Source: Harriotta raleighana
Lineage: Eukaryota
DNA: 64,000 nt
NCBI GenBank assembly: GCA_050575255.1
Contig: JBNZDD010013634.1
Span: forward strand, 2,725,046-2,789,045
Reading direction: 5' to 3'
Part shown: positions 1,781 through 58,566 of the stretch, piece by piece
Position numbering within the stretch: the first letter of the stretch is position 1
How the letters are laid out: each line of letters opens with the position of its first letter
Notes under the pieces: model-generated
The model's database searches: none
What the model was told of the DNA's origin: nothing
What the model saw: the letters and a program-made list of their open reading frames with translations, nothing else
Position numbers and translations under genes: made by a program

Positions 1781-1898
1781 ATGTGAATCCTGTGCAACTC
1801 TTGTTTAAACAAATAATGTTACTTTAAAATAATTACCATACAATATGCATGCAATAAAAGGGTACTTATATCATTGTTAGCAGCCTTTAGAAATTTTA

Positions 1899-1996
1899 GG
1901 CTGATGTAAGGTCATGGATCTGAAAGGTTAACTAATTTTCCTCTCTCCATGGATGCTGCCTAACCTGCTGCGTGTTTCCTAGTAACGTCTGTGTTT
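1899..1996 (+). mobile_element. Degenerate copy of the Penelope-like element (duplicate at ~5417-5514)
   Basis: ctgatgtaaggtcatggatctgaaaggttaact...ctctccatggatgctgcctaacctgctg resembles the 49.2-kb arm. Confidence 0.6.
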
Positions 1997-4900: not shown

Positions 4901-7900
4901 GGAGGGTGTGTTCTGTTACCATGAGGCATGCAACCTCAGGCTTTATTTAGTTTGTGGGCTTCTCGAATCAAACAGAACTGGTTTTCAAGGATAATAATAC
5001 AATAATCCTTACATTTGATACAGCGCTTTTCACATCTTCTCGACGTCTCAAAGCGTTCACAAATATCCTATGAAGTGAATTGACTGTATATTTGTGGGTG
5101 AAATGTGCGGCAGCCAATTGCATAGAGCAGGATTCCACAAACTTGTGCATTGAAGTGACCAATTTATTATTTATTTTCTTGAGGGATTATTATTTGACAT
5201 GTGGAGTAAGGAAACTTGCCCAAGGTTTCGCCCTGTCGGGAATGGAACCTAAGTCACCCACTTGCAATGCGAGTGCTCTAACCACTGCGATTCCAAGGAT
5301 GTGAATCCTGTGCAACTCTTGTTTAAACAAATAATGTTACTTTAAAATAATTACCATACAATATGCATGCAATAAAAGGGTACTTAAATCATTGTTAGCA
5401 GCCTTTAGAAATTTTAGGCTGATGTAAGGTCATGGATCTGAAAGGTTAACTAATTTTCCTCTCTCCATGAATGCTGCCTAACCTGCTGCGTGTTTCCTAG
5501 TAACGTCTGTGTTTACATAGAAATTGTAGATCGGTTTCAAATCAACAAAAAAAAACTTTGTGAGGTTGTACTTTTTGTTTTGAAGAAGTAAAATTTCTCT
5601 TGTAAATGGAAGAAATCATAGAATTTATAGCATAGGAAAATGTTGGTCCATCGATTTTCTGCTGGTACTTAATCAACTGGAGCTAACCACACCAATCCCA
5701 ATTGTTTGTTCTTTTGCAGTAACCCTTTAAATTATTTTGCTTCAAATGTTTATCCAATTCTCTTTCAAACATTATTGTTGCCTTGGCTTGAATGAGTAAT
5801 TGTAGCAAAGCATTCCATGTTCTAATAACCCTTCGCGTGAGAAAGTTTAATCTCAAACGCTGCTTTAAATGAACCCGAACAAAACCTGTTTAGTGCTCAG
5901 TAAAGTGATACAAAATCGTTGCTAGACTTAATTTTGCCCATTCCGCCTTCATTATGATTTAATTGTTGTTTTTTTTACTTGGGCGGTAATGCTTTGCAAC
6001 TGCAATTAATTCACCGTGCAAAATATGACTCAGTAGTCATTTTCATGCATAAATTCACCGCTTGGCTCTGATAAAGATGAACGACTCTACCAGACAGGAT
6101 AATTCAGCCCACATACTATAATGTAGCATCATTGCAATGGACAAGTAGAATGAATATCCAGCTTTTCATTTGCTTTCATTCCACATTTCAAATACTTTCT
6201 TTGGGCATTGTTATTCAGCTCAATGATGCATATCTTAAACAAAGGTGGGCAGCTCGCACAGTACATTCTGTTATTCATTTATTTTCTCAGACACTGGCAT
6301 TTTCCAAGAAAATACGCAGTGAAGCAAAGTGTGGCCAAACACTGAACCAGACAAAGATGTGCACATTCTCAAGAACCTACGATCAAACCACTTATTTCAC
6401 AAGGCTTCATTTCCAGCAGGATATCGGACTAGCCAAATGGGTGACTGCTACAGCTGAAAAATTATATTGTTTTAAACTGCTTCCTGCAGCTTAAATGAAC
6501 TGTTAGTTTTTCGGCATGATGAGCGAAGTTTTCTTCACAAGTCCAACAGAACCCATCAACAATTTGAGCCTCATTTGTCTGAGATGGCGGTATTTTCTTT
6601 CTGGTTTATTTCGTAGTTTTTCTTTAAATTCTCCCTAGAGCTTTCCTTGTAGTCCAATAGTTTGTTCTTCTGAAGTACAGTACATCTGTTTGATTATTTG
6701 GGGGGGATTTATTTTGATTCCAAAACGAATTATACAACAATGTCCACTATTAAAGTTGTTGCATTGACCTCTTCACTGCACACACATTTCCAATAAGAAG
6801 GGCAAGCGATAGCCTGCTCTCAAAGCTCTGATTTTACTTTCCTAGTCACGAACTCTGGTACTATTTTTACATTCAACACCTCTATGCAATGCTCCCTTCT
6901 TAAAGAGTTTTAGAACTTTTACCTCAATCTCTGTTCAATCCAGTACCAGCACTGAATTAAATGCACTTTTGTCTATTATTTCAGATGGGAGTGGGGGAGA
7001 GTTCAAATACAACTAATTGTACCACAAACTTGGAGGATGTGACAGAACATTAATGGGAAAAACAACTGTTGATGCTTTGACTTAGCAGCTGGAGTTTGTT
7101 TCTTGCTGTGGTTCAACATTAAAGGAGCACTGTCTTAAGGAAAGATTTGCTAAAGTTTTTTCCCCCCTGTAAATATGCTCCTTTAAAATCAACAGCAGCT
7201 CCTAGCAGAGTTGCTGGATACTATGTATACATGAAATGTGTCTCTTGAGTTGAAGATGTTCTGATCATATACAAACCATTGCTTAGTATATGAAATGCCA
7301 AACATTCTTTGCGCATTCCTCATGTCTAGTAGATATCAATAAAGGTTTATAAGGCAACAAAACGGAATCACCAACTACTGTGGAAATAACATGTTTCAGT
7401 GTTAACATCAGTAGAGGAATCTTGTCAACACAGCACAACTTGGATGATCAGGAATGAAATGAAAACCTGGTCTTGTTCGATTTAACTTGTGTGCTTGCCG
7501 CAGTATATCAGGTAAAAATTAATCTATTGTCACCCAAAGCTGCTGAAAATCTTGGCAAATGTGAATCGTGAGGCTTGGGTTTGATGCACGGTTGCAAGTT
7601 AAGGTACATTCTTCAGCACTTTGACTCTCTGCTTTGTAGATCAATCACAGAGCTCTCATTAAGATAAGTCATTGTAAACAAAGAGATGGCAAACTATAGG
7701 CAAATTCCTTGAAATGCTAAAAAGTCAGTTCCTTTCCCACTGACAGTCGCACATGGAAAGAAGCTTCAAACTCTGAAATTCAAAACAGCGAAATAAACAT
7801 TCAAGCGCAGGATTATAAATGAAATGATCAAACTCGTAAAACCACTCCAAAATTACCCCTTTATTGTTCCACGCTCTGATTTTCTTCCTCCTCTGAAGGC

Positions 7901-10900
7901 TTCATGGTGGGGATCTATTCAAATACTTGGCAACTCAAAAAATTATGCATCTCAGTTCCCGAACTTAGCCTTTGGGAAACAGCAAGCAGTACATCACATA
8001 ATAGTTAACTGACAGTAATCTGCAAGGTCTAGCAACTACATATGAACTCAGGAATGTACAGGACATCGTCCCAACTCAGCTTTAAGGGTTAACTCATACT
8101 GGAGTGTAAGAAGATGGTATTGACATAAAAGGTTATTGTAAGGCAATGACTACAATTGATTCANCAGGACATCGTCCCAACTCAGCTTTAAGGGTTAACT
8201 CATACTGGAGTGTAAGAAGATGGTATTGACATAAAAGGTTATTGTAAGGCAATGACTATTGATTCGAAGAGGAATGATGAGAACGTTTATGCCAAACGCT
8301 GGCTTCACTATCTGTACCGACTGAAAGACAACNTGATTCAAAGAGGAATGATGAGAACGTTTATGCCAAACGCTGGCTTCACTATCTGTACCGACTGAAA
8401 GACAACCTTTCATGAAAGGGCCTTCTGTTGCCCCAACTCAGATCTTAGTTTTGCGTCCATCAAGCTCTGCCAATATTTCTGGAGAAGACTCAAGCGAAAA
8501 AAATAGTGGGTTCCTGCGGCTTGAAAAGCTTATTAAATACACACCAACTTAAGCAGTAATTCCATCAATATAAAGAGGTCTGAAGACTCTAAAAGATGAA
8601 GCTAGGTTTGGGCTCAATACTAATCCCATAAGCAAAAGCGAGCCAAGCACAATGAACCGGTTTGAAAATATTGAAACTAAATAAACTATAGTATAAAACA
8701 TCCTTTAATACTGGGGAACTTCAAGCAAAGTCCAGTATAGCATATTTTAATAAATTTTCAACAGCGTGGAATAAAATTAACTGTTTAACATCAATGCAAA
8801 CATTTTGTTTTTAAATATTTACTTTATAGATACAATATATTAATTTCAATAACAGTTCAACATTAGTCAGGTGAAGTTATATAAATGCTGTAATACAAAA
8901 TAGACGTATGATCTGCCATCTAGCTGCACGTTCTGATTACTGTACTTGTAAGCACAGGAAAAACAATAGGTCTTCTTATTTTATGAAACTTCTTAAAAGT
9001 TCAATCATTCGATCATTAAACAAAAATTGAGTATTTCCAACATCAATGAAATGTTTTGAACGCTCTTGTAAATTTATGAACCTTGGTGATATGAGGTTCA
9101 AACAAGATTTTCTTATTATGGGTGTACAAAGCCAAGGTCACTATGTTTAACCAACCAGCAGCAAATAACATATGTTTGCCTGCCAAAGGCAATTAATTTA
9201 CTAATGAGTGGAAAATCACTGGCCTCATTGACTATAGGAATAGGAGGTGATGGAGGTTAGGGTCTGCGTTTGTAGATGAGAAATGAAAGTACAACATGTT
9301 TTCTGATACAGCAGGTATTATATGCCATACCACGAGTGTTTTACGCTGTAGTTAGTTCATTTTGGCTGCGAAAAACCTTTTCCTCACGAAACTTTGATTC
9401 AGTTCCCAGAAATCAAAGAATGAACATACAGACAAATGGTGTAATTCTCGTTATGAAAACAATTGTTATGCAATAGAAATCGATGTCCCAGAAATGTGGA
9501 ACGATTCTGTTTGCATCTAAATTATAGAAAATGTTTTAAGAAGATAAAATTCTCTTTCAGAGAACCAAAAAATTTTTTTGTTTGTTTTGCGACAGAGTGC
9601 TGAGATGTATGGCATTGTTGTAGAACTACTGTATCTTGTATTACATTTATTGCAAATTGTTTCAGGTTTTTTAAAATTCATTTGAAACTTTGATGTATTC
9701 TTTCATTACCTTGCCACAGGGACCTAATCTTAGAGTACATGAGTCTCCCAGTATAAATAAAAATGGAGTGTTAATTTATATTCTCTGTGTTTTGACTTCA
9801 TTGCTGTTGTGCACTCTGTAAAATGTTTTGCAACACATCTGCAATGATCTCTGATAGCCCCATACAATCTTTTCCCCCAAGCAGTTTAACAGTGAATCAC
9901 AGATCATGTTTCTTAGCTTAAGGGAAAGGTGTAGGTTCCCCAGTGATTTTACAACTTATAAGGTGAATATTCTTTAATACAATGCAGAAAAACTGTTTGA
10001 AATCACTGGTCCTTTGTATCATGTGGTTCTGAGACTAAAGGAAACAATTTTTTATATCACAATAATAATTAGTTTTATAGTCCTCGCATTTGATATAGTG
10101 GTTTATCATGTTATTAAGACATCTCAAAGTACTCCACAGGATATACTATAAAGTGGATTGCTTGCATTTTGTGGGTGAAATGTGGCAGCCAGTTTGCGCT
10201 CAGCAATGGCCCACAATCAGCGATGGAGTGAGTGCCCAATTTTATTTGGGGGATTTATACATACATCCACAAATATATTCCCAAGTGGTAAACCAGGATC
10301 ACAGAGAGAGGAGACAGCACAATGTGGTGTTGGGAGCAGATGACAGAAAACAACTGGTAAAATTTGACAAGAGGGTTGAGGATTGGCTTTACAAGCCAGC
10401 CAACTGGCTGTAACACAATCTTAAGGTTTGATGACTTATCACTGTTGCAGCTTATGATCTCATCTGATTTTGAGACAACTATCCTTGTCAATGTTGCCTC
10501 CAGCTGGATCCTGATGTTCAATCTCCTGTTACACAAATAAAAGCGGGAAAAATTGGACCGTGTTTCAGCCTTGGAACAGATTCTCCAGACAACTTTTATT
10601 CTATATGTCCCACTTATTTTCAACGAATAAACATTACTGATATGCAATGGAAATGTTATTTTTCTTTCTATTTAGCCGTCATCCCCTGGATTTACTCTAA
10701 ATTAATCATAAATAAGAGACCAGAAAGGCATCTTATTATGAAGCAAAGTTTGAAAATCTCAAGGAACTAAAAAGCAGAACACCCTTTGACAAAGCACAAC
10801 CCAATTCTTTGAACCCTAGTTGACTAAGTGGACATTTTACATGAACAAGAATATTTTATTTCCTGCCTTATTAAACAATGTTATATCAAAACCAACATAA

Positions 10901-16100: not shown

Positions 16101-16168
16101 TAAATCTCTGCACAGAAATGGTTTGTGCACATATGGAATATATTTTGGGATTGATCCCGGATGCCACC

Positions 16169-16936
16169 CCACATGAAGGGAGCTATATTAATGCAATTAT
16201 TGCAAGTTGTTGTTGTTGTTGATGATGATCAGCACCCAGTGTCCCACGNCCACATGAAGGGAGCTATATTAATGCAATTATTGCAAGTTGTTGTTGTTGA
16301 TGATGATCAGCACCCAGTGTCCCACACTCCAGCACTAGACAAAGGTAAATTGTTGTTGTTGTCTCATTGGAGATGACTCAAATTGATTGGTGATTGTACC
16401 CAAGGAAGAGGAAGGGATGGCAGAAAATTGGTGAAGAAATCTTGTCAAAATGGCCATACGTGAAGCGAGCTGTGTTCAATGTACCACAACCCTATTGCAG
16501 CAGACTGCCTGCCGACAGCTCCCAAAGACTGTCCANCCAGTGTCCCACGCTCCAGCACTAGACAAAGGTAAATTGTTGTTGTTGTCTCATTGGAGATGAC
16601 TCAATTGATTGGTGATTGTACCCAAGGAGAGGAAGAGGAAGGGATGGCAGAAAATTGGTGAAGAAATCTTGTCAAAATGGCCATACGTGAAGCAAGCTGT
16701 GTTCAATGTAGCAGACTGCCTGCCGACAGCTCCCAAAGACTGTCCGNGCACTAGACAAAGGTAAATTGTTGTTGTTGTCTCATTGGAGATGACTCAAATT
16801 GATTGGTGATTGTACCCAAGGAAGAGGAAGGGATGGCAGAAAATTGGTGAAGAAATCTTGTCAAAATGGCCATACGTGAAGCAAGCTGTGTTCAATGTAG
16901 CAGACTGCCTGCCGACAGCTCCCAAAGACTGTCCGG
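16169..16936. repeat. Overlapping 80-200 bp duplications separated by n (16249, 16536, 16747)
   Basis: Three copies of gcactagacaaaggtaaattg...cccaaagactgtcc, with an n at each junction between copies. Confidence 0.85.
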
Positions 16937-17492
16937 CATAGAGCCTCAACAACGTTTGAGTGAGGAGGGACTCGAAAACAGAAGTGTTGGGTAACTTGGG
17001 GTTTTGAAAGAGCTCGAAGTGATCCTGGAGCCAAGTCCATTCATACACTTACTCAAGTGGCCTGCATGTTACCATGCCAAAGTGTGGCGCTCCACCGACT
17101 GGCACCACACACAGTCTAGGCTTTGTGATATGTTGCCAGTTGCTGCGTGATGCACTACTAGAAGCTTTCTGAAACAGTTNACATTCCCTGGTCACGGAGC
17201 CAATCTTATATTAAGAAAAAGTAGTAAATCACATGGTCCTTATCTTTATTACTTTCTACTTTAAAAAAAGTTATTTGATGTTCTGACAAATGTAAAGGCC
17301 CTGGCAGACAACACTGCAGGCACCCATTACTCTTGATTGCAGTGTAGAATACGCTGATTTGGTTACAAATGAAATGCAAGCCCAATATAAGAGGTGGTTC
17401 TCTATCATGTCTTCTGCTAAAGAGCATTCAAAAATGTCTTCCTGTATGTCTGTAGCAGATAAAATAATCCTTTTGTTAAGAGGCCATTGCCA

Positions 17493-17806
17493 TAATAATA
17501 ATCCTTGCATTTGATATAGCACTTTTCGCGTCTAGATGTCTCAAAGCGCTTCACAGAATATACTGTAAAGTAAATTGACAGTATATTTGGTGGGTGAAAC
17601 ACAGTAGCCAATTGCACACAGCAGTGTCCCACAAACAGTTGTGGGTTGCAAATGACCAATTTCGTACTTTTTTTTAAAAAGATTATTATCAGCTGTATGG
17701 ACTAAGGAAACTTGCCCAACATTTTGCCCTTCATCCTGCCAGGTAATCAAACCCAGGTCACTCGCTTGCAAAGCAAGTGCTCTAACCACTGAGCTACAGG
17801 ACTCCA
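17493..17806 (-). mobile_element. Full-length tRNA-derived SINE
   Basis: Same family. Confidence 0.9.
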
Positions 17807-22323: not shown

Positions 22324-23444
22324 TTACATATCCGAATCCGCATACATTCCATTTATTAAATAGTCCACTTGAACATAGTCTTTCCTCTTGTAACTGTCGT
22401 ATGCCTTTTGGATAAACAATAGAATACTTATCAAGAAACAGATCAGTCCCAATGTCAGTACCGCTATAAGTAAACTATGATTGGCTAAATATTTAGCAAT
22501 GGCTACTGTGGGCTCAAACGGGAACAGGTATTCATTCGTATTACTAGAAGCAGCTGTGGTTTTAAGTTTAGTCTCCGGTATCTCTGTGGCTACCTTGGAT
22601 GTGGAGGGGATTCTCGAAGTTGAATTGCTCGTCTTAGTTTTATCCCCTTGTTTTGTTGTTGCTGTTGTTTTCTCCTTGATTGTCTGTGTTGTGGACAAAG
22701 CTGTTGTCCTCAGGATTGTGGTTGGTGTGTTTGTCACTGTAGTATGGATTGCCGAGGTGGGGGACGAAGATAGGAGTGTCGTTTTCAAAAATGACCCTTC
22801 CAATGTAATGCTCGGGGTAGCTTCAGAGGGAATAGGGGAAGATGTGGATTCGATTAGGTTTGTCTTTGTTTCTCCAGCTGCTGTGGTTTGTGCTGCAATT
22901 GACAGTGACACGCTTTTGGTGCTGGCTGTGCTCGCTCCTTTGGTTGCCCCAATTGTTACGCTCTGTGTTGTGTACCCACCTGCGGTATTGCTAGCCAATG
23001 GAGTTTCTGTGCTAACGCTGGTTGTTGCAACTGTGCTGTTAGTTGCAGTTGTGTGTGTTCTGTTGCTTGCTTCTGGCTTTGAAGATGGGCTGTTGTTTGA
23101 CCTGACTGTCCAATTAGTGATTGGTGGTTGTTTTGTTTCTACTTCTGGTGTGGATGCATTGGTGGTGACTGCCATGGATGCATTGGTGGATGTCACTGCC
23201 ATGGATGTGTTGGTGGAGTTGCTGGATGTCACTATCATGGATGTGTTGGTACCATTATTGGATGTCACTAGCATGGCTGCGGTGGTGTCCGCGACAGATG
23301 CTGCAGTTCTCTCTTTGGTTGGCATTGATGTTGGAGTTGTTACTGATAATGTTCCGGGAATGGATGTAAGGTTTTCTGTGATTCCATTGATTTTTCTCTT
23401 TTTTCGCACATGTTTTAGAAAATTATTGATGAATGATATTTTTC
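22324..23444 (-). CDS. C11orf24: C11orf24 homolog, last coding exon (RKKR, Ser/Thr mucin stalk, TM helix, cytoplasmic tail)
   Basis: Acceptor ctgttttctag| at 23445-23447 is in frame with ORF 22324-23409. TM helix LLIAVLTLGLICFLISILLFI; tail [28 protein letters not shown] closely matches the C11orf24 C-terminus ([26 protein letters not shown], recalled). Spliced CDS is 1404 nt = 467 aa + stop. Confidence 0.95.
23150..23277 (-). repeat. Coding tandem repeat (24-36 bp units) in the mucin stalk
   Basis: Repeated atggatg...tggtgg...gtcact units encode MLVTSNNGTNTS/MIVTSSNSTNTS/MAVTSTNAS/MAVTTNAS. Confidence 0.85.
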
Positions 23445-23844
23445 CTAGAAAACAGATAATATAATAACTTATAGTGGGAAGTGAACAAGTGCTAAAGTGT
23501 GTATTTAGTCAAGCCTGCCACATCAGTGACAGACAAACACAAACCTTAATATTACTCTCACATGTGATTCACCTTCCGTGCATCTACTGTTCTTATTCCA
23601 CGTTGCAAAACTCACAGATTTTCTTTCCATCTCTGTTGCTGCTTAAAGGTTTGATATTCCACCTCTCCTTCAACCACAGGGAGCCAAAGGACAAAAGGTC
23701 CAAAATTGTGGCAATGGAAAGATAGATCCGTGTTGGATCTCATGGTGTTTCCAACGAAATAAGGAAAGAAAGTGAAACAAGCAGATACTGGAGCCTTAAC
23801 AAAGCAAAGTGCAGCTTTTTTCTGAGGGTATTTGTTAATAAAAA

Positions 23845-24145
23845 TAATAATAATCATAACCTCTGTATTTGATATAGCACTTTTTATGTCTTCTAGATGT
23901 CTCAAAGCGCTTCACAGAGTGTACTGTAAAATGAATTTACTGTATACTTGTGGGTGAAACTCAACTGCCAATTGCGCATAGCAGTGTCCCCCACACAGTC
24001 AGGAATTGAGTGTCCAAATCATTATTATGTTTTTTTCAGGGATTATTATACCCGGAAAAGCAATCCACCAATCGACTGACAACCGTGTTCCTACTTACTG
24101 CTAGGTAAACAGAGGAATGTGGAGTAAGGAAACTTGCCCAACATT
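23845..24145 (-). mobile_element. SINE, longer variant with extra internal segment (C11orf24 intron)
   Basis: Same family plus ~65 bp ending ctaggtaaacagagg. Confidence 0.8.
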
Positions 24146-24411
24146 GCCCTTATGAAATACAGGGAGCAGAAATCCTCACTTGTGTTTCATCCTCAGCTGG
24201 AGCTCTTAAAGAGCTGGCTCAGGCAGGATGGGCTGAAAGATTCTGTGATTCTATGGAAGTAGAAAACTCCAACAAGGTTGTTACAGAGACTGGATCCAGC
24301 CAAACCCATTAATATGGAACCACGATACTGAACGTAAATGATTTGTAGTTTTCTTCAGGATCTGCAATAGCTCCTGCAAAATTTAAGAACAAAACTTGTC
24401 TCTTGATTCAA

Positions 24412-24686
24412 TTCTTCTAGACATCTCAAAATGCTTCACAGAATATACTGTAAAGTGAATTGACTGTATATTTGTGGGTGAAACACGGCAGCTAATTGCA
24501 CACAGCAGTGTCCCACAAACAGGCATGGATTGAAATGATCAATTTTATTATTGTGGGTTTTTTGGGGGATTATTATTAGGCATGTGGAGTAAGGAAACTT
24601 GCCCAAGGTTTCACCCTGACCTGCCTAAATTCGAATCCAGGTCTCATGCTTATAAGTCGAGTGCTCTAACCACTGAGCTACAGGAC
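24412..24686 (-). mobile_element. tRNA-derived SINE (C11orf24 intron)
   Basis: Same family with head. Confidence 0.9.
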
Positions 24687-25012
24687 TGACGCTACACATC
24701 TGTCCTCAAAGCAGTGCAATTCAACAGGGGTTCACTGAGCAGCTTGTGACTTGGTGGTTTTCAGAACCGCAGTCAACCCTCTGGCCATAAAGATATAATA
24801 AATAGAGGAGAAACTTTTTTTTCACAAAAAAAGTCAGTGGGTGGAAGTTAAACAGATGTAAAAAATTGTTCGCTATCTGATCAAGAGGAATGACTCAGAA
24901 ACTCACTTTCTGAAACCCAGTGATGGGAGGGTTAGAAATTGTCAATGCGAGGTTAATACCCACAACCACATTTGGACACAGTTGCCCTTTGAAAGGTAGA
25001 TTGTAGTCATAC

Positions 25013-25135
25013 CTGCTTGCAAAGCTCGAACATCTTCCACAGGGGCTAGTTTGCAGACAGTCAGGTCAAGGCAGTGTAAACAAAAACATAGCTTCTCTTT
25101 CTCTTCCATCACTACCCAGTTGCACCTCAATCCAT
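25013..25135 (-). CDS. C11orf24: C11orf24 homolog, coding exon 2 (Cys-rich, DGLRCNWVVMEEKEKLCFCLHCLDLTVCKLAPVEDVRALQAG)
   Basis: Acceptor tgttgcag| and donor GCAG|GTATGA; 123 nt, phase 1-1; keeps the frame between exons 1 and 3; five Cys. Confidence 0.85.
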
Positions 25136-25140
25136 CTGCA

Positions 25141-25215
25141 ACACAACAACAACAACATCAACAACAAAACTACATTTATAGAGCGCCTTTCATGTCGGGA
25201 GAATGTCCCAAGGCC
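25141..25215 (-). mobile_element. Ultra-short L2 3'-tail insertion
   Basis: caacaacaa...tacatttatagagcgcctttcatgtcgggagaatgtcccaagg. Similar 60-80 bp remnants at ~20155, 28770, 30010, 32560, 34750, 40795, 43452, 54065(+), 56077, 57250 and 61392. Confidence 0.8.
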
Positions 25216-26063
25216 CCGAAAAGAAAATCAAAATGAACTACTGTATTCCAGTTCTGGAAGGTTATTAAGATTTTTTTCTTTTTTAAAAAAAAGTAAATTA
25301 ATTTCAACTAACTGTAAGACATTTGTCTTAGTTGTGACGAGATGCAGCTGAGATCCATCATGCATATGGGTAACTGGATTGCCACTGCTTACAGCTCTCC
25401 AAATCTTTAATAGGACACCGGAGAATACTAACTTTCATTTTATCTGTGGGCTGGAATTAAATTGTAATCCCAGGATTCAGTGGTTTCAAACCCACAAATG
25501 ACCCTGTCAACTCAGCTCAGATTTTCTAGCATTTCACTAAAAAAAAACTCCTTCCCCTTTCTGCTCCTAATGATGTTTCTTTTAACTACATGATCAAACA
25601 CCGTAAATAAGTTACTTATGTCCTTAAATCATCACCGTAATTAATATGTTCAGACATTGAGACTTGCCCTGGGAAATCTGCAGATTAGAATTGAGATGGT
25701 TCGATATAGTTTAATAACAGAGCAGATTTAAAGTTGTGCACAATCACTTTATTGAAATCTGTACTGCACTCAGCAACAAAACATAGTTCTGTAAAAACGA
25801 CTTCTGCAAAATGGGTTTTGCGATACATGTTAAACTGAAATTTGGCTGTACTGAATACAACTGCTTTTCATTTGCCTTGCTCATAGATCAATCACAATTC
25901 CACCGAACTTGGCTATCACAGGGGGATTGGGGCCAAACTTAGCTTTGCTTTGACAGAACACAGGTTTGTTCTGGATCTTTCAATGTGCGTGAACACGCTC
26001 ACAAAAATAAAGGTAAATGGGGTGAAAAAATATTGAAAGGTTTAGCAATTCTGGTCAACAACC

Positions 26064-26284
26064 TTCTGTTTGTGGGACAAAACACAAAATACTACAGATG
26101 CTGGAAATCTGAAACAAAAACAGAGAGAGCTCGGAAAAACTCAGCAGGTCAGGCAGCATCTTTGGAGAAAGGAAAGTGAGTCAACGTTTTGGGTCCACGA
26201 CCCTTCGTCAGAACAGGTTCCTTAGATGCTGCCTGACCTGCTGAGTTTTCCCAGCTCTCTCTGTTTTTGTTTCTGTTTGTGGGA
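26064..26284 (-). mobile_element. Second copy of the palindromic Penelope-like element with 14-bp TSD
   Basis: Same family in opposite orientation; short inverted arm ~26225-26272; TSD ttctgtttgtggga at 26064-26077 and 26271-26284; hammerhead core on - strand reads CTGACGA...AAAA (G12 lost). Confidence 0.8.
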
Positions 26285-26324
26285 TATTGTTGGGTGCAAA
26301 CTGGCTGCTGCATTCGTTTACAAA

Positions 26325-26510
26325 ATAATGATAATAATCCTTGTATTTGATATTGTGCCATATCCCATCTTCAAGGTGTCTCGAAGCACTTCACAGAATA
26401 GACTGTAAAGTGAATTGATTGTACATTTTGTGGGTGAAATGTGGCAGCCAATTGCGCAGAGCAGCGTCCCATACAAACAGGCGTGGATTGAAGTGATCCA
26501 TTTTTATTTG
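26325..26510 (-). mobile_element. Truncated SINE
   Basis: Tail and body of the same family. Confidence 0.8.
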
Positions 26511-27815
26511 TTTTAGACTGTCACTACACTTTACGGTACATCTTGTCAAGCACTTGCAGATGTGAAAGGCAAACATGCAAGACTACATCAAATGCAAGGA
26601 TTATTACGATTAAGATATTACACTGCATAATTGTGCTCAGTGGTAACCAGTCTAATTGATAAAAGCAATGCAGTGCCTTTTCGCAATCTGATCGCACTGA
26701 AAGTTAAAACACAATTTCTACAAGGCACAAACATGTCGGCGGAGAATATGCCAACATCCACTAGAATTTGGCCCAAAGATTAGCTCTTTAGAGTAAATTT
26801 AGAGCACATTGCAGTGGAATAATAATTATGTGCCAACACATCTGCCAACAGTTAAAATGATGGCAGATCAGAAGACTGATAATAGCACTGCAAGGCCAAG
26901 TGTTCTTTGTTGAATTATTAGCACGAGTACCAAGAAAAGTCGCTGTTTCAAACTACAAGCATCTTCGAGCATTGCATAGCTGTCCGCAATAGTGGACTTC
27001 AGTGCCAGCACCTACAAGAGGCACAGCAAATAAATAAATAAGCGTACAAGCAGTTTGAGATTTCATCTCTTAATCCGCATGGAAATAATTCTACTAAATC
27101 TGACCTGTCAGATACAGGCAGAGGATCCCGTGCACTCGTTTGACACATTATAGATGAGGTGTTTTTTTCTGCAAAGTGTAAGAACCGAATTGTTGGCTGG
27201 AAAACCAAGAAGAATTCCCTACTCCTGTTGAGTTGTGGGATTATTTGTGCCCACCTGAAGAGGGAAACCAGACAATGATTGCAAATCTTGTCTAAAGGTT
27301 GGCACCTCTGGCAATGCAGATTTCTCCCAGTTCTGGGATTCGAAGATCAAGTGTCTTGGAACATCCCAATACCTTGGGACACCCACTCCCCACCAACATG
27401 AAAGGTGTTATACAAGTGTCATCTGTTGTTGTTGTGTCAGAGCTTGTAGCTCAGTACAGGTATGTGACTGAGCAACTTAAAGGTAAACGTTCAAAACGAA
27501 GTGAGGAGGGCAGGGAGAGAGGAAAGAGACGGCAAAAAGAGGGATCAGAGAGAAAATACGGGTTTGGCAACTTCCGAGCAAGTCTGATCAAGTTGTCATT
27601 GACTGTATAAGTAGAGATAAACTGTACATTTAAAGTTGATTTTTATTCCTTCTGAATGGCAGAAACACCAATTGAAACACAATTGGAAGTTTTTTTCTGC
27701 TCACCAACTTAAACCCACCTGACAGATTGTTATGATTATTTTCCTTTGTAAATTTTATTATCCAAGGTACTTGGTAACACATTGCAAACTGGGATTTTTA
27801 AAATTTTTGTTTTAC

Positions 27816-27975
27816 CTTGGTCCGAAACACGGTTGCAAATTTGGTTACATTCTTCTGCGCTGGTAACACGAACGGACGTCAGCAGTTTGACTCCACTACT
27901 TTGTAAATTGTTGGTGGAGCTCTCAGACAAAGAGGAGATTAATAATGAGAGGAAGAGGACAGAAGACGTCCACAT
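27816..27975 (-). CDS. C11orf24: C11orf24 homolog, coding exon 1 (signal peptide + start of Cys-rich domain)
   Basis: ATG at 27975 gives MWTSSVLFLSLLISSLSES..., resembling the human C11orf24 N-terminus as I recall it (MWTALVLIWIFSLSLSES). Exon acceptor tttatttttcag at 28049-28051; donor CAAG|GTAAAA after 27816 (phase 1). Confidence 0.9.
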
Positions 27976-28761: not shown

Positions 28762-31233
28762 CTTTTGACACAAACAACAACAGCAAATTTACACTTGTAT
28801 AACACCTTTCACACGTCAGGAGGACGTCCAAAGGCGCTGGACAGCAATTTCAATTCTGCAGGAATACCTGTTTTGGGAGCGCTGCTTATTCAACAGATTA
28901 ATTCAACCTCCATCTTAATCATGTTCCTGAGGCTGGCCAGTCGATAGATCATATTGATAGCATTTGGATTTTTAATTCAACAAAAAATCATGGAAATACA
29001 GCAACAGTAAGAGAGCAATGATGACACTGCTAAGCTGCTGGTGCGGAGCAGATATGAAATAGTCCAACAAGACTTCGAGGATGACTCAAGAGTGCCCTCT
29101 ACTGGGAAAACATCAAATTCCTTCTGCTCAAACCTCTTGTTCTATCTACCTCACAGGAGAGCGAATTCAGTCAAACTAAATAATCTCACAACAAATTTTC
29201 CTACAGCCATAAGTAAATTCCACCTTGCCTTAGCCTGCAAGACCTTTTTAAGTTATTTCGCACAAAATTCTTGAATTCAGTTTTAATTCAGACGTCTGTT
29301 CCTTTTAAGAATGACGTGAGAACCGTATCCCAAGTGAAGTCTGAACATAGCAATTTTACACAATTCTGCACCATGTTAACTTTAAAACAAAATGGTCTAA
29401 CAGATGAAAATAGGTGAAATTTGGTGTGGTTAACAGGCAATTATGTTTCAAATAATTTTTAAAAAATATTTGAGAGTTGTCCCATTTCAGCTGAGAACAT
29501 TTCTGGCTCATGTACAATATTATTTTAGTTCCAAAAACCAATCTTCAGACGTTAGCTCATTTGCCTGTGGTAAATTGAGCTGGTTTCAAACATCTTGGGG
29601 GTTTGGAGACAGGAAGCAATGAATTTTCGGTCACTTGAAACTTTGAATTTCAAGCTTTTGATCAGGAGTAGGGCATTCAGCATTTTGAGCGTGTTCCACC
29701 ATTCTATTAAATCATGGCTGATTTGGGGGGAAATTAGAATGGGATTCTAATATCACACACACAAAACCTGCACAATGCGAAAGAGCCATGTCCAGACAGG
29801 TGAACAAGATTTAACAAATTTAAAGAAAGAAAGAAACGATTTGCAAATGCAAGATTAAATCCTTACAAAGACATAATCCAGTGTTGAAATCACTGATTAT
29901 CTGATGATCAATGGAATCTGTATCTCCTGCTCCAGGTAAAGCCACAAAATCAAAGCAAATTTTGATCTGAATGGCTAACAATAAGTGTAAAGGGGAANCT
30001 TTTGACACAAACAACAACAGCAAATTTACACTTGTATAACACCTTTCACACGTCAGGAGGACGTCCAAAGGCGCTGGACAGCAATTTCAATTCTGCAGGA
30101 ATACCTGTTTTGGGAGCGCTGCTTATTCAACAGATTAATTCAACCTCCATCTTAATCATGTTCCTGAGGCTGGCCAGTCGATAGATCATATTGATAGCAT
30201 TTGGATTTTTAATTCAACAAAAAATCATGGAAATACAGCAACAGTAAGAGAGCAATGATGACACTGCTAAGCTGCTGTGCGGAGCAGATATGAAATAGTC
30301 CAACAAGACTTCGAGGATGACTCAAGAGTGCCCTCTACTGGGAAAACATCAAATTCCTTCTGCTCAAACCTCTTGTTCTATCTACCTCACAGGAGAGCGA
30401 ATTCAGTCAAACTAAATAATCTCACAACAAATTTTCCTACAGCCATAAGTAAATTCCGCCTTGCCTTAGCCTGCAAGACCTTTTTAAGTTATTTCGCACA
30501 AAATTCTTGAATTCAGTTTTAATTCAGACGTCTGTTCCTTTTAAGAATGACGTGAGAACCGTATCCCAAGTGAAGTCTGAACATAGCAATTTTACACAAT
30601 TCTGCACCATGTTAACTTTAAAACAAAATGGTCTAACAGATGAAAATAGGTGAAATTTGGTGTGGTTAACAGGCAATTATGTTTCAAATAATTAAAAAAA
30701 AATATTTGAGAGTTGTCCCATTTCAGCTGAGAACATTTCTGGCTCATGTACAATATTATTTTAGTTCCAAAAACCAATCTTCAGACGTTAGCTCATTTGC
30801 CTGTGGTAAATTGAGCTGGTTTCAAACATCTTGGGGGTTTGGAGACAGGAAGCAATGAATTTTCGGTCACTTGAAACTTTGAATTTCAAGCTTTTGATCA
30901 GGAGTAGGGCATTCAGCATTTTGAGCGTGTTCCACCATTCTATTAAATCATGGCTGATTTGGGGGGAAATTAGAATGGGATTCTAATATCACACACACAA
31001 AACCTGCACAATGCGAAAGAGCCATGTCCAGACAGGTGAACAAGATTTAACAAATTTAAAGAAAGAAAGAAACGATTTGCAAATGCAAGATTAAATCCTT
31101 ACAAAGACATAATCCAGTGTTGAAATCACTGATTATCTGATGATCAATGGAATCTGTATCTCCTGCTCCAGGTAAAGCCACAAAATCAAAGCAAATTTTG
31201 ATCTGAATGGCTAACAATAAGTGTAAAGGGGAA
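28762..31233. repeat. Near-identical 1.24-kb tandem duplication across gap n29998, probable assembly artifact
   Basis: 28762-29997 vs 29999-31233, with few differences. Confidence 0.9.
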
Positions 31234-32754: not shown

Positions 32755-33669
32755 CTGGCAATGCAATGAGTCAACAGCTTAGAACCAGATCTTATAATGA
32801 AGCTTCACATATCATTTGTTGAGCATCCAACTCAATATATTTTATTTTGAGAATAAAACTTCTTAATTGAGAGAACACATTCCACTGTGACACAAGGAAA
32901 TAAAATTATAAGGAAATGCAATTAAGGAAATAAAAACTGCTGAGCAGTTCTGTTTAAAAACACAAAATTTGTTTGTAAAGCCAGCAACAGATATTGTTCT
33001 GCATAATAAGGTACAGTCTCCATTTCAGGGCAGTCTTGTAAACTCCTCAAAGAGGCCACAACTGCTTTTCATAAACATTGCCTGGATTAAAACTCTCCCT
33101 TGTAACCAATGAGAGGCAGAACTTTAGGTTCAGTGTAACAGACTCCTGGTGTAACGCATATAGTAGCGTACTGTATATTTGAATACTCTGAAGCACAGTG
33201 ATTCATTTCCGCATGTGTCTCAGACCTGACCAAAAATAAACACAATCCAAACACATTGTTCTGCCAAGGACAGCTTTAAGGGAAGATGTACCAGAATATA
33301 ATAGAAGAGTATAATTTTGCCCTCTCCCAACTTCTGGTTATCAAGCCAGTGTAACTCAAGATAACATTGTGGTAGTTTGGAGGTGTGGAGGAGCAGATGA
33401 GAAAGGAACTCAAATCATTTAATTAATAATCTCTGGAAAAAATCATTTACATGCACAGCAAACCAATTGGAGAGAAATAGATTTATTCTGTCTGACGAAG
33501 TGGACCATCGATGTCCACTTAGATCATCGAGGGAAATAATCTAAATATTNATTTACATGCACAGCAAACCAATTGGAGAGAAATAGATTTATTCTGTCTG
33601 GCGAAGTGGACCATCGAGGTCCACTTAGATCATCGAGGGAAATAATCTAAATATTACAATATGATGATA

Positions 33670-39727: not shown

Positions 39728-41614
39728 TACCAATAATTTGCTTTATTGTGTATGTGTTTCTATAGAGCGTACAGTGTTCATCCATCTTAAAGAGTTTCAC
39801 ATGAAATTGGTCTCATGTGTAGTAATAATAATAACAACAATGATAATAATCCTTGCATTTGATATAGTGCTTTTCACATCTTATCGAAGTCCCAAAGCTC
39901 TTCACAGAATATACTGTAAAGTGAATTGACTGTATATTTGTGGGCGGATATATTTGTATATTTTTAGACAAATGTGGCAATCAGCTTGCAAGGAATCACA
40001 GACAAGCATGTAATTGGGACATTCTCCTGACGTGAAAGCCGCTATGGAAATGTAATTTGTTGTTGTTTACTTCAAAAACAATACTCACAGCACCAAACTT
40101 TTCAGGGAAGTCACATTTTCCATTTCTTCTGTTTCATCCGCACGAAATGTACTGTGTGAATCCGTTAGCTCCANAAACAATACTCACAGCACCAAACTTT
40201 TCAGGGAAGTCACATTTTCCATTTTCCAGTTCTTCTGTTTCATCCGCACAAAATGTACTGTGTGAATCCGTTAGCTCCAACTGGCACATCACATCATGCG
40301 ACCAAAATAAATATCAGCTGACTACACACTGGGACTGTCGCAGTCTTGTACCAAACAGGTTTGGGATTAAAAAAGCACGGGATTTTACTCTGGGTGAATA
40401 AATGCAGTCATACAGCTTATTTTCTGCAGCACTTACTTTCTACGAAATCTTGCTTAACATTAATTTGATTATCCCACCAGAGATCAGAAGCCCGGAACTC
40501 CACTTCCTCTGGGCCTATAAAATCATCATGTTTCGCCCACATATATACAGTCAATTTACTTTACAGTATATTCTGTGAAGTGCTTTGAAACGTCTGGAAG
40601 ACTTGTAAAGCACTATATCAAATGCAAGGATTATTATTATACCTTAAAAATATCAAATTGAACAGAATCCTGAAAAATTCTTTGTAAAAAAAATGAAGAA
40701 AGTCTAAGCACTAGAGAAGAACTTGTTTCCAGAGTAAGGCTGAATTTAAGAGTTTTTGCTGCACATCTGCGCCTTCCTGAATTTTAGCACCAACAAATGA
40801 CATTTAACATCGCACCTTTCACTTTGGGAGGACGTCCCAAGGTGCTGGATATTTAAGATTATAAAGATTATAGAGGTTAAGGCCAGGCACAATTTTCAGC
40901 AGCAGGTGTCCTCACTTTCATAAAACACTCCTAAACACCACAGGTGTTGGCTAACCTCCAGTGTCTGACTCAAGTGGCCTTTTTTTTTCCCCTGTAGGAG
41001 TGTTGGCAGACAATTCAACCATGGCACGATCTTGTCCTAATCTAACGTCCAAACACACGCATTCTTCCTAGCTGGGGTCACTGGATAGCAAACAGGTACT
41101 GGCTGATTTACCCCTCTCAAATTTATAGGCAGGGAAAACCAACCACAGCATTCTCTGCTGCCCCGATCAATCAACTCACTGAGCACAGCTCAGACAACAA
41201 CCTGGTGGTTGCAGGTGGGGATGGGTGTGATTTGCGAGAAGTGACTTGACCAATCATTTACCGTTAGGCGCTACTTTTATTCTTGCTTTGCTGCTTTTTT
41301 TCTCTAATACGGGCAATAATGTCCATAAATGTCCAGCAATTATTGGTCACAAAAGAACAAAACAAGAACATCAATAAAGTGTCTAGAAAGATATTTAGTA
41401 GAGTGTTAGTTCAGGCCATGGGCAGGATTAATAACAACAGTACATGTGGTATGAAAGTAAATTGTATGGTATTAAAAATATCAAATGGTGGTGTTATATG
41501 CCTCTGCTGAGCAGTAAAATACTAAATGCTGATTTCTCTCTACAGAAATTTGCGATGCCCTTCTAGCGCAAGTGGCTTTCACTTTCTAAGATGCCTTTGG
41601 AATCTAAAGACCTG

Positions 41615-45900: not shown

Positions 45901-46535
45901 TACAAAATTTAAAACAGGCAACCATTTCTGATCGCTGTCAATGTTGTTTTACTGGTTTGTAACCTTCCTATGGACACTGGGGGTGGGTGCGATGGGGGAG
46001 CAGATATGTTACCCATGGTGTCTAATGCAGAGTAATAACTGTGCAACTAGGCAGATACCCATCTGTTCTCAATTCTGCTGACCATACAGCAAGTCCGTCC
46101 CACAACAGCGAATTGTTTCTACAAAAGGAAGTGTTGCTTTTTTGTACCTAAACAGCCGTCATTGCTTTCTGCAAGAGGTGCCAGAGAAAGAAAGAGTGAA
46201 ATGTGGCCCTGAAAAGACACAGCAGGTCTTTGCGTTGCATGACCACTTCTCCTCCGGACGCCAATAAGTCACTGCAAATAAAAATGAAATTCAACCACAG
46301 CACGAAAGAAGCAAATCCGCCTCCTCCAAACATACCACAATTAATGTGCTGCAGATGACTGCAATAACAACAACGAAATATAATAAGTCCAGCATTTTGT
46401 CAAATTTGTCTTTGGCGGAAGTGCTGACATCCACTTCTTCCAATAATACAGCAAACAGGAAGGATTCCCCAAGCATTTAGTGCAATAGTTGGATCTGTTC
46501 TACAGATAGAGTGTTACCCAATATTCATGTCCAGG

Positions 46536-46645
46536 AACAAAAACACAAGTCGCTGAGAACACTCAGCGGGTCAGGCAACATCTATGGAGAAAGGCAAGTG
46601 AGTCAATGTTTCCTTCATCAGAACTGTCCAGGTGGCTGCCTGAAC
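46536..46645 (-). mobile_element. Degenerate copy of the Penelope-like element
   Basis: aacaaaaacac...actcagcgggtcaggcaacatctatggagaaaggcaagtgagtcaatgtttc...ttcatcagaac, with stem II deleted. Confidence 0.65.
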
Positions 46646-46879: not shown

Positions 46880-47605
46880 TCCCCCTCAATCCTGCAAGCC
46901 AAAGCTGCCTTCCACCACCTCCAGAACATCGCCAGGCTATGACACTGCCTCACCCCTCATGCTGCTGAAATACTAGTCCACGCCTTCATCACCTCAAGGC
47001 TGGACTATGGGAACTCTCTCCTCGTGGGCCTTCCCGGCTCCTACATCCACAAGCTGCAGATCATCCAGAACTCTGCAGCTCGTGTACTCTCCCGCACCAG
47101 GCTTCGAGACCACATCACTCCCACCCTCGCCCGTCTCCACTGGCTCCCCATCCTCCAGAGGATTGAATTCAAGATCCTCATCCTTACCTACAAGGCCATT
47201 CACGGCCTTGCTCCCTCCTACCTCTCCGACCTACTATCCCCCTATCTACCTGCCCGTATTCTCCGTTCCTCTGGCTCTGGTCTGCTCCACATCCCCTGCC
47301 CTAACCATCCTATCATCGGCGGCCGGGCTTTCAGCTGCTCAGCTCCCAGGCTCTGGAACTCCATCCCCTAGTGCCTTCGCCTCGCTTCCTCCCTTTCCTC
47401 TTTCAAGGCCAGTCTCAAGACCTTTCTCTTCGACCGTGCCTTCAGCTCCCCTCTCGAGTCTCTACCCCCTCCTTGCTCCCACCCTCCCCCCCCTCACCCT
47501 GAACATTTCCCCCTGCTCGGGTCTTAAACCAACTGTCCAGCGCCTTGGGATGTCCTCCTGACGTCAAACGCGCTCTATAAATGCAATTCTGTTGTTGTTG
47601 TTGTT
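46880..47605 (+). mobile_element. L2-clade LINE 3' fragment (ORF2 C-terminus, 3'UTR, (GTT)n tail)
   Basis: Translation [18 protein letters not shown]...[12 protein letters not shown]...[14 protein letters not shown]...[15 protein letters not shown] is typical of L2 ORF2; in-frame stops; ends cgctctataaatgcaattctgttgttgttg. Confidence 0.9.
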
Positions 47606-48779: not shown

Positions 48780-49077
48780 TGGAGTCTTGTAGCTCAGTGA
48801 TTAGAGCACTTGCTTTACAAGCAAGAGACCTGGGTTTGATTCCAGGCTGGGTGAAATCTTGGGCAAGTTTCCTTACTCCATATGCCTTATAATAATAAAC
48901 CCTCAAAAAAAATTGGTCATTTCAACCTATGACTGTTTGTGGGACACTTCTATACGCAACTGGCTGCCACGTTTCGCCCACATATGTAGTCAATTCACTT
49001 TACAGTATATTCTGTGAAGCACTTTGAGACATCTAGAAGACGTGAAAAGCGCTATACCAAATGCAAGGATTATTATT
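48780..49077 (+). mobile_element. Full-length tRNA-derived SINE (Deu-related, L2-type tail)
   Basis: Head tagctcagtgattagagc (A box) ... ggtttgattcc (B box); body gggcaagtttccttactcca, tgtttgtgggacac, ggctgccacgttt; tail gtgaaaagcgctataccaaatgcaaggattattatt. Confidence 0.9.
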
Positions 49078-49124: not shown

Positions 49125-49384
49125 CAATACTGTTATAAAACAAAAACAGAAGTTGCTAGGAAAACTCAGCAGGTCAGGCAACATCCATGGAGAAAGGAAA
49201 GTGAGTCAACGTTTCGGGTCCACGACCCTTCGTGAGTTCTGATGAAGGGTGGTGGACCCGAAACGTTGACTCACTTTCCTTTCTCCATGGATGCTGCCTG
49301 ACCTGCTGAATTTTCCCCACAACTTCTGTTTTTGTTTCAGATTTCCAGCATCTGGAGTATTTTGTGTTTTCAATACTGTTATAA
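49125..49384 (+). mobile_element. Palindromic non-autonomous Penelope-like (pLTR-derived) element with 14-bp TSD
   Basis: Inverted arms ~49138-49232 and ~49243-49337; one arm extends to 49370; flanked by direct repeat caatactgttataa (49125-49138, 49371-49384); contains a hammerhead core. Confidence 0.8.
49232..49274 (+). ncRNA. Minimal type I hammerhead ribozyme motif
   Basis: GTGAGTT-CTGATGA-A-GGGT(ggtgg)ACCC-GAAA-CGTT-GACTCAC: stem I GTGAGTT/GACTCAC, conserved CUGAUGA and GAAA boxes, stem II GGGT/ACCC, palindromic ACGT at stem III. Confidence 0.65.
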
Positions 49385-50284: not shown

Positions 50285-50610
50285 AGTAATAATAATAATA
50301 ATCCTTGCATTTTGACTTGGCGCTTTTCACATCTTATCAACGTCTCACAGTGCTTCTCAGAATATACTGTAAAGTGAATTGACTGTATATTTGTGGGTGA
50401 AACGCGCCAGCCAATTGTACCCAGCAGTGTCCCACAAACAGTTGTGGATTGAAATGACCAATTTTCATTATTATGTGTTTTTGGATGGATTATTAGTAGG
50501 CATGTGGAGTAAGGAAACTTGCCCAAGGTTTCACCCTGATCTGCCTGGAATCGAACACAGGTCTCACACTTGTAAGGCGCGTGCTCTAACCGCTGAGCTA
50601 CAGGAGCTCC
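50285..50610 (-). mobile_element. Full-length tRNA-derived SINE
   Basis: Reverse complement of the same family with intact head; a partial + strand copy follows at ~50625-50785. Confidence 0.9.
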
Positions 50611-56730: not shown

Positions 56731-58248
56731 TATGAATATGTTAAAGTCTCAGCTCTTATCCTTCCCCACCCCCGAGATTTATTTCTTATTTACTTCCCCC
56801 TATTTGTCAGTTGTGTTAGGCCAGGCAATGAGCGAGGGCAAGTCCTTTAACTCTAGAGGTTTTGGGAAGGGCAGCATAAATTAAATAGCTTGATGCTGTG
56901 CTCACCTGGTCCTCACATCACATTTTTTCAATTAGGCTCATTGGATAAGAATCTAAAACAGGAATCTTGGCAGGATATGATCATCCCTCTCACCCCACCT
57001 TTAATCCGGGAGGGGTAGGGCCAAGTGACAAAGACTCCTGGACAAAAATAGAAGAAAGTGCAGTTGTTGACTTACCCAAGCTCAGACTTTCAAAGCAGAA
57101 AGAAACCAGCACATCCTGCTCACCACTGACAACTATTGTTTGTTGCTTGTCAGGCCACTGAGACTGATGCACCAAAGCCAGAAAATGTATGCACAAAGCT
57201 CATTCTCTTATCTGCATTAACAGTGTCGAAAGACATAGTGGAGAAGGCAACAGCAACAAAATAAAATTACAGTTGGTACAGCATCTTTCACGTCAGGAGG
57301 ACGGCAGAAAGTAATAAAGAAGAATGGATGAAGGGCTAAAATGGAACTAGGGATTGAGACGAGGAGAGTACTGTAAATAGAATACCTGCGATTGCACCTT
57401 AAAGAGGAGAAGGAAAAAGATTGAATCAGTGTGAAATTTAACATGCAAATCTTGTCAGTAGCTGTTAGTCACACAATGAAGGGCACCTACATTTATCCTG
57501 TACCTGAATACTTACACAAGCATTTTAAACCAACATTTGTGCAAGCATTTACACCTGACAAATAATAGAGCCAGTTTGTGCATATCTATAATTATATATA
57601 CAGTATATGCTCTTAAAATGCACACAAGATTCAATTTCTCTTCCTTTTTTGGGGGTAAGCTGTTGTTCTTTTGCAATACACCCGTACATTATTCCCTGAC
57701 TGAGAAGCCTGGCATATGATCCACTCTGCTTCTGTTAGCAGCTTCCCCCCTTCTGTTGCCTGGCCACCTGGGAGAAGCTGTGGGATACAGGACTCGTTGT
57801 GGGTTGACTGTGATTTCACCTTTCCCTGCCACCTCTCTATTTCTGCTCAGCTTCCCTGGACAGTCAACACGAACACACTGGGGACTTGTGGAGAGATACA
57901 GGCTTGATAGGGAATGATGTTTTCAGGAGGCACAACATAGTAAAGACTCTTGAAGATATACAACATGGTTCCATGCCAGTAATGTTAATAGCACTACGGA
58001 CTGTAATTATATTCCACAATTACACCGATCTGCAGTCAGTTGCACAATTACCAATTCGAGGACTAATTACAACATACTGATTGAGTCACAGTGACTCTCT
58101 ACTTGTGTTTCACAATGTGCACAGCACTACCCAGCTATTCTAAACGTAAGCTCTCAAATAGCAAGTTCTACATTTGCCACACAAAGCATATCTACTATTC
58201 AGATTTACTGGACATTCCACCCTTAAAATGATTGAACAAGACCACATT

Positions 58249-58566
58249 TAATAATAATAATAATCTTTGCATTTGATATAGCGCTTTTCACATCTTATCG
58301 ACGTCTCAAAGCGCTTCACAGAATATACTGTAAAGTGAATTGACTGTATATTTTTGAGTGAAATGCGGCAGCCAATTGCACACAGCAGTGTCCCACAAAC
58401 AGTCGTGCATTGAAATGACCAGTTTTTATTATGATGTGTTTTTGGACGGATTATGATTAGGTGTGTGGAGTAAGGAAACTTGCCCAAATTTGCGCCCTGA
58501 TTTGCCTGGGATCGAACACAGGTCTCACACTTGTAAGGCTCTAACCACTGAACTACAGGAGCTCCA
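58249..58566 (-). mobile_element. Full-length tRNA-derived SINE
   Basis: Same family, (AAT)n tail through head. Confidence 0.9.

Follow-up and report, generated by a model that had tools for sequence, protein, structure and literature searches.

A minimal hammerhead motif, predicted to be masked by its inverted twin, in a palindromic insertion, very probably of a Penelope-like element, in the chimaera Harriotta raleighana

The window analysed, a stretch of 64,000 nucleotides from Harriotta raleighana (GenBank assembly GCA_050575255.1, contig JBNZDD010013634.1, positions 2,725,046 to 2,789,045), carries on its minus strand a C11orf24-like membrane-protein gene (Pfam DUF5585; 22324-27975) with three coding exons at about 27805-27975, 25002-25139 and 22324-23450. 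The C-terminal 79 residues of its product share 80% identity with Callorhinchus milii, the closest named relative, and 59–68% with sharks and rays. A SINE family of about 300 bp, with a tRNA-like head (Rfam tRNA matches) and an (ATT)n-type end, is present in at least 10 copies, among them 48783-49077, 17493-17803, 50288-50603 and 58240-58540. Another dispersed repeat end, comprising families D14 and D17, occurs at 25145, 32547, 34747, 42664, 43437, 56065 and 61384 and at 46943-47560. It resembles the end of a 142-codon fragment at 46943-47371, which has no Pfam match and has the look of an L2/CR1-type LINE protein C-terminus. Near-identical tandem duplications were found at 8058-8406, 16164-16942, 28762-31233, 33438-33656, 40075-40280 and 1-5626, with one N marking each join or lying close to it (8164, 8333, 16249, 16536, 16747, 29998, 33550, 40174 and 2108), and these N-bearing duplications look like assembly joins and not real repeats.

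At 49139-49370 lies a 232-bp insert, here called the 49k insertion, which consists of a head-to-head inverted pair of arms of about 100 nt with a 33-nt tail on one side only and is bounded by a 14-bp target-site duplication (TSD). The left TSD (49125-49138; AT-rich, and 13 bp long if its last A belongs to the element) is repeated exactly at 49371-49384. The inverted arm (49139-49236, minus strand) is a second pLTR copy without tail, antisense to the plus strand hammerhead described below; left and right arms are identical at 91 of 99 positions, and the 33-nt extension of the right arm has no pairing partner in the left arm. The palindrome has an MFE of -172.8 kcal/mol (z -21), a value that none of 200 shuffles equalled. 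The original prediction had placed the hammerhead inside a palindromic mobile element, and this was borne out by the single long hairpin, its inverted arms and the TSD at both ends. Beyond the hammerhead, the remainder of the right pLTR arm (49275-49337, plus strand) runs to a U-rich end, which is the common outer end of the tail-less arms, and is followed by the tail (49338-49370, plus strand), a short hairpin and then a second U-rich stretch. The U-rich end at about 49337, 70 nt past the cut site, would be a proximal start of reverse transcription (RT), and the U-rich stretch that ends the tail, 103 nt past the cut site, a distal one. The proximal arm end (49326-49340) is a pyrimidine tract followed by CAG, resembling a splice acceptor exactly at the tail start, which may be coincidence. 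Introns are known in the pLTRs of Penelope-like elements (PLEs).

Just right of the centre of the insert, at 49232-49274 on the plus strand, every part of the minimal type I hammerhead named in the original prediction was located. Stem I (49232-49238 with 49268-49274) is paired at 7 of 7 positions, the innermost pair being a U-G wobble, and none of the 6 further positions outward is paired; its 7-nt 5' strand straddles the junction of the two arms. The core box C3-A9 reads CUGAUGA (49239-49245) and is followed by an extra unpaired A (49246, between positions 9 and 10.1), which is typical of PLE minimal hammerheads. In this copy stem II (49247-49250 with 49256-49259) has 4 bp, including the G10.1-C11.1 pair (G49247-C49259), and a 5-nt loop. 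It is followed by the GAAA box (G12-A13-A14-A15.1; 49260-49263) and by ACGU (49263-49266), a loopless palindromic stem III (C15.2-G16.2-U16.1) in which C49264-G49265 is the palindromic 15.2-16.2 pair. U17 (49267) ends the GUU cleavage triplet, and the predicted cut, between 49267 and 49268, is the one given originally. The end of the tail (49364-49370) could, by eye, pair with the 3' strand of stem I (49268-49274) at 5 of 7 positions, a weak observation, made post hoc and relevant only for a circular RNA.

The minimal-hammerhead descriptor of Cervera and De la Pena (PMC4209133, Fig. S7), with CUGANGA and GAAANNUH boxes, 3-7 bp in each of stems I and II and 3-10 nt in loop 2, was coded and run on both strands. 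It gave a single match in the 64-kb window, with the core at 49239, and on the minus strand none. Among block-wise dinucleotide shuffles (n = 1000) any match was obtained in 8, a stem I of at least 7 bp in 1, and a match to a stricter rule (G10.1-C11.1, extra nucleotide, paired 15.2/16.2) in 0, so that the descriptor scan proposed with the original prediction came out in its favour. The left arm has CUCACGA in place of CUGACGA at its inner end, or else begins there at A6, and stem I is absent; the left arm is therefore not a ribozyme. No hammerhead was among the 14 Rfam matches at E ≤ 5, which the missing stem III would explain. Rfam miRNA and plastid-hairpin matches on the palindromes were under gathering scores and reflect the long hairpins only.

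The motif is a real minimal hammerhead of an already known kind. It fits the published consensus, in which PLE motifs share CUGANGAH (PMC4209133, Fig. S3) and, as emerging features, the extra nucleotide, G10.1-C11.1 and a palindromic 15.2-16.2 (PMC4209133), and the assignment to the PLE type made originally is upheld by the extra nucleotide, the ACGU palindrome and the GUU site. The metazoan PLE motifs also have a GAAA-C-G-U-U loopless stem III, the C-G-U-U ending being shared by several motifs in Fig. S3 of that paper, and are mostly single and dispersed with some opposite-strand pairs, as here (PMC4209133). They differ in that the opposite-strand partner lies 100–700 bp away, whereas in the 49k insertion it is adjacent, and the 7-bp stem I is at the upper limit of the published descriptor. 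As a ribozyme the motif is ordinary, since fish, coelacanth and frog genomes hold thousands of minimal hammerheads at PLE ends, the coelacanth about 4,000 motifs and Xenopus about 9,000, most of them single (PMC4209133). What it adds is a holocephalan example: the alignment in Fig. S3 of PMC4209133 has no chondrichthyan row, and full-text searches of the open literature gave no description of a PLE-hammerhead family of palindromic form in sharks or chimaeras, though the family may be catalogued in Repbase or Dfam.

A profile search with the arms gave 7 matches at E ≤ 1.2e-11, all others having E ≥ 0.16, and these seven arms correspond to four independent insertions. The 5.4k arm (5414-5517, plus strand) was counted with the 1.9k arm (1896-1999, plus strand) as its duplicate, since both lie within a 2.1-kb, 98.9% identical duplication (1-2107 versus 3507-5626). 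The 26k insertion (26078-26273, minus strand) is a tailed palindrome with a long arm, a 49-nt inverted arm and a 34-nt tail, the same tail as in the 49k insertion; its 14-bp TSD (26064-26077 and 26271-26284) shares 3 bp with the element end, and the short arm could reflect a later central deletion. Its hammerhead remnant has a stem I of 3 bp and a G12 to A change at the general base of the hammerhead (PMC6155905). The 46k insertion (46536-46624, minus strand) is a solo tail-less arm that starts at GUU, has lost stem II and is flanked by an 8-bp TSD (46528-46535 and 46625-46632). At 1.9k, a more diverged solo tail-less arm (69–79% identity to the others), also with an 8-bp TSD (1888-1895 and 2000-2007), has A9 changed and a stem II kept fully paired by a compensatory change. 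With G5 changed or missing in the left 49k arm, all ribozymes other than that of the right 49k arm are damaged. The family had been predicted to be spread through the genome; for this the window offers only its four independent insertions within 64 kb.

TSDs adjoin all four independent insertions, with lengths of 14, 14, 8 and 8 bp, and two of the four are AT-rich, the kind of target that PLEs prefer. When a duplication was sought at both ends within ±2 positions for 20,000 random position pairs away from Ns, at least 8 bp were found in 17, at least 11 in 2 and at least 14 in 0; the counts were 43, 23 and 17 of 20,000 when the N-centred duplications were kept. As TSDs adjoin both ends of inserts of 89-232 bp, these insertions are not autonomous PLEs with an RT-EN ORF of their own. 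The tail is present in the 49k and 26k insertions and missing from both solo arms, and both tailed palindromes have a 14-bp TSD and both tail-less solo arms an 8-bp TSD, a comparison of only two insertions with two. Private bases common to the arms of one insertion were found in 4 of 48 columns, and bases shared in this way across insertions in none; they could stem from later gene conversion. Five of the six arms begin about -7 to +3 nt from C3, and this clustering points to a template of unit length, or to a strong stop, and not to random truncation.

Taken together, the 49k insertion (49139-49370) is very probably an ORF-less, dead-on-arrival PLE insertion, with two pLTRs head to head and a masked minimal hammerhead. 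The short, non-coding PLE derivative foreseen by the original prediction agrees with the inverted arms, the 33-nt tail, the TSDs and the absence of an ORF. Membership in the PLEs is judged from anatomy and not from homology with any named PLE. Hallmarks of PLEs are a copy that is inverted and 5'-truncated and, at one of the ends, a tail of 30-40 bp (PMC8557442), and head-to-head inverted pLTRs, a 31-bp tail, TSDs of 8-10 bp and solo pLTRs have been described (PMC3846280). The insertions of EN+ PLEs in these two papers thus share head-to-head pLTRs, a one-end tail of 30-40 bp, a short TSD of variable length and solo pLTRs with the family studied here; the differences are that none of the four insertions has an ORF between or beside the repeats and that the TSD reaches 14 bp, compared with the 8-10 bp reported for A. 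vaga (PMC3846280).

Formation of the palindrome may be pictured as follows. A PLE reverse transcriptase/GIY-YIG endonuclease encoded elsewhere would nick both strands 14 nt apart, and reverse transcription would start at a pair of internal U-rich sites separated by 33 nt, so that one arm would be tailed and the other tail-less. Copying would pass the scissile bond, so that the template would be uncut (or re-ligated), and would stop near the 5' edge of the ribozyme. Joining of the two 5'-truncated ends would then form the palindrome anew at insertion, a single cDNA leaving a solo arm. Both outer ends of the insert are indeed pLTR 3' ends, the first lying at the proximal U-rich site and the other at the distal, and in the middle the truncated 5' ends come together. 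From the private bases shared within insertions, and from three architectures in four insertions, it is probable that the palindrome does not replicate as a unit, and most likely it forms afresh when the element inserts. That both nicks are primed is inferred, the alternatives being a self-priming fold-back, as proposed for junction palindromes (PMC3846280), or later gene conversion.

The steps resemble those reported for Poseidon of Anolis carolinensis, PAc (PMC11167929). There both strands undergo nicking and extension by the PLE protein, the tail is bounded by two internal RT start sites, the main substrate is RNA that has not been processed and the ribozyme cuts only with the protein. In both systems the two tail-delimiting end points lie within about 100 nt of the cut site and the inserted copies cross the scissile bond. 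What speaks against a simple match is that the start sites, AC-rich in PAc, are U-rich (in the ribozyme sense) here, that only two of the four target sites are AT-rich and that the searches gave no partner ORF. The PAc ORF starts at stem II (PMC11167929), whereas for the present element neither an open frame to match it nor a related protein was recovered.

The original prediction also proposed a search for PLE reverse transcriptase/GIY-YIG ORFs ending in the repeat. None was found in the window: no Pfam match to reverse transcriptase or GIY-YIG was obtained for its 124 stop-to-stop ORFs of at least 75 aa, DUF5585 being the only domain above cut-off, in a scan that has little sensitivity for decayed genes, since the L2/CR1-like tail fragment escaped it too. 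Protein searches with translations of the element, in the sense frame among longer proteins and also in the antisense frame, gave no relative, a weak absence as the queries are short. The one match to a representative protein (P0033), a repeat protein without local alignment to the query, was rejected as a scoring artefact. Three matches in an exact 21-mer scan of bacterial and archaeal genomes did not extend beyond 20-21 nt and were taken as chance, and a sigma-70 scan was set aside as irrelevant to a vertebrate.

Comparison of the copies showed that the stems of the 49k hammerhead differ from those of other copies. The outer 4 bp of its 7-bp stem I, which had been noted correctly for this copy, are private to it and overlap the end of the antisense arm, while the first bases of the 26k and 46k arms are precisely the GUU that precedes the core, which leaves them a stem I of 3 bp. 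Likewise the 4-bp stem II holds for the 49k copy and not for the family, where it has 5 bp and a 3-nt loop in the other arms that retain it; the 49k copy has lost the closing pair, with G at 49251 versus C in the other three aligned arms. Of the stem II cells 95% are paired; the copy that is oldest and most diverged carries a double-sided change and a single-sided one. Covariation was not significant, the score being reached by 74 of 500 shuffles, on an alignment of only 4 rows from which 46k was left out for its deletion. Better conservation of the core than of its flanks was not significant: mismatches to the majority occur at 3 of 55 cells for the 11 core positions and 31 of 314 for the downstream arm (p = 0.45), a test of low power with 5 ribozyme-sense arms (the 5.4k duplicate was excluded, and the core is missing from the short arm at 26k). 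Neutral decay of dead insertions also predicts this core-versus-arm result, and neither the conservation nor the covariation test supports or refutes selection.

For the 7-bp stem I two origins were weighed. It may, tentatively, be an accident of the junction, the arms having met at the usual GUU start and a C-to-G change at 49234 having both finished the helix and destroyed the minus-strand core. The exact GUU starts and 3-bp stems of the 26k and 46k arms speak for this, as do the agreement of 49232-49236 with the antisense-arm end at 4 of 5 positions and the length of published stems I, mostly 2-6 bp (PMC4209133, Fig. S3). The accident nevertheless needs one specific transversion at the sole mismatched position, for which about 1% is estimated at a divergence of about 4% per arm. 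The right arm may alternatively reach 4 nt further into the true stem I of its parent and be joined through a 2-nt microhomology. This requires no mutation, and the parental stem I is the preferred reading. A perfectly palindromic family centre in which stem I has 4 bp was rejected, as the bases that supported it are the TSD of the 46k copy.

With regard to the replicating RNA, a dedicated ORF-less mini-PLE transcript of about 135 nt, with its start at the ribozyme's 5' edge and its end at the tail, is conceivable but rather unlikely, each insertion then recording its route of integration. One primed nick would give a tail-less solo arm with an 8-bp TSD, and priming of both nicks at the two RT starts a tailed palindrome with a 14-bp TSD and its own ribozyme silenced, a link between TSD length and architecture drawn from two insertions versus two. 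If this were true, a density of 4 per 64 kb would give tens of thousands of such records in a chimaera genome, and these would allow an in silico test of how the inverted pLTRs and tails of PLEs form, which is unresolved in the cited papers. The clustered 5' ends and the possible link of TSD length to architecture are in any case a mechanistic lead on the formation of the PLE inverted repeat and tail.

A further reading, which appears improbable, is that the arms are monomers of a non-LTR retrozyme with a unit of about 135 nt and head-to-tail arrays elsewhere, whose dimeric hammerheads cut, whose RNA circularises and which PLE enzymes re-insert; a PLE origin is compatible with it and only the replicating RNA differs. 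Non-LTR retrozymes are indeed short, non-coding, PLE-related elements with type I hammerheads and TSDs of more than 4 bp (PMC7229834; Li, Clavereau and Pollet, 2026 preprint). In that preprint the tandem units counted bear either canonical or minimal ribozymes, a derivation from pLTRs is argued for, and non-LTR retrozymes, solo monomers included, are reported from its one chondrichthyan. The clustered arm starts are those expected of a unit-length template, the copies cross the scissile bond as a circle would, and the 26k tail has an extra terminal G equal to the first base of the arms, a weak point of one base. Retrozymes are however defined by head-to-tail arrays and circular RNA, whereas here the arrangement is head-to-head or solo, the ribozyme minimal and the unit about 100-135 nt. 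No head-to-tail pair occurs in any of the four insertions, and none of the 19 tandem-repeat rows of the window covers an arm. A head-to-head inversion with a one-sided tail is described for PLEs (PMC8557442) and not for retrozymes (PMC7229834), and the latter paper links retrozymes with tandem repeats bearing canonical type I ribozymes and PLEs with minimal ones. The chondrichthyan mean in the preprint is 363 bp. The term retrozyme-like, used originally, is not supported in its defined sense, as the window has no head-to-tail array and the partner copy is inverted.

Folding of the motif in its context indicated that it is masked. Core bases mispair even in the isolated 43-mer, where the hammerhead secondary structure lies 1.3 kcal/mol above the ensemble. 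The penalty rises to 4.6 kcal/mol with 10 nt of the left arm and to 47.4 in the whole element, and inclusion of 8 nt of the left arm lowers the stem probabilities from 0.9-1.0 to 0.02. Predicted folds of plus strand transcript prefixes have the hairpin zipping up as the core emerges. Cleavage of a read-through transcript of the genomic copy, which should form a hairpin of about 95 bp, is thus unlikely on the folding model, and the cleavage in place implied originally is not supported, given the energy of the hammerhead fold relative to the hairpin ensemble. Descriptor matches therefore need folding in context: the 49k motif looks intact, yet lies buried under the antisense arm. The hammerhead of the source RNA would act as its published class does, weakly and either as a dimer through ACGU:ACGU or with the protein of the element. 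Cofolding of two isolated motifs gave a strand-swapped dimer with mispaired cores; as the model cannot score the geometry of an intermolecular stem III, this is uninformative for or against dimer cleavage.

It is accordingly very doubtful that the 49k copy is an active self-cleaving RNA in place, kept intact for a job in a host transcript. Among the 5 ribozyme-sense arms it alone has all 11 core positions and stem II, its stem I is the longest, and for a transcript starting at 49228-49232 stems I and II are computed to fold with a probability of about 0.9-1.0. Any transcript starting at least 8 nt upstream of the motif is nonetheless predicted to form the long hairpin, a second sense copy for a dimer was not found nearby, and no CpG island was found in the window. 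Published minimal hammerhead monomers showed no cleavage (PMC4209133), and in the 2026 preprint 1 of 9 predicted Xenopus dimers tested was cleaved and 8 were not. One intact arm among five, at about 8–10% divergence, requires no selection. Least probable of all is a MITE, in which long terminal inverted repeats would belong to a non-autonomous DNA transposon and the hammerhead would be incidental cargo: the element is short, ORF-less and strongly palindromic and has at two insertions the 8-bp TSD typical of hAT elements (PMC9004415), but TSD length varies (14, 14, 8, 8 bp), the 8-bp TSDs flank solo arms without inverted repeat, the palindromes have a one-sided tail, and arms are closer within than across insertions.

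Within an intron of the C11orf24-like gene, the 26k insertion entered what remains of a SINE. Its ribozyme lies in the sense of the host gene and is left uncovered by the short inverted arm, and its G12 to A change falls at a CpG; in this one case the change could be due to selection against intronic cleavage or to plain CpG decay.
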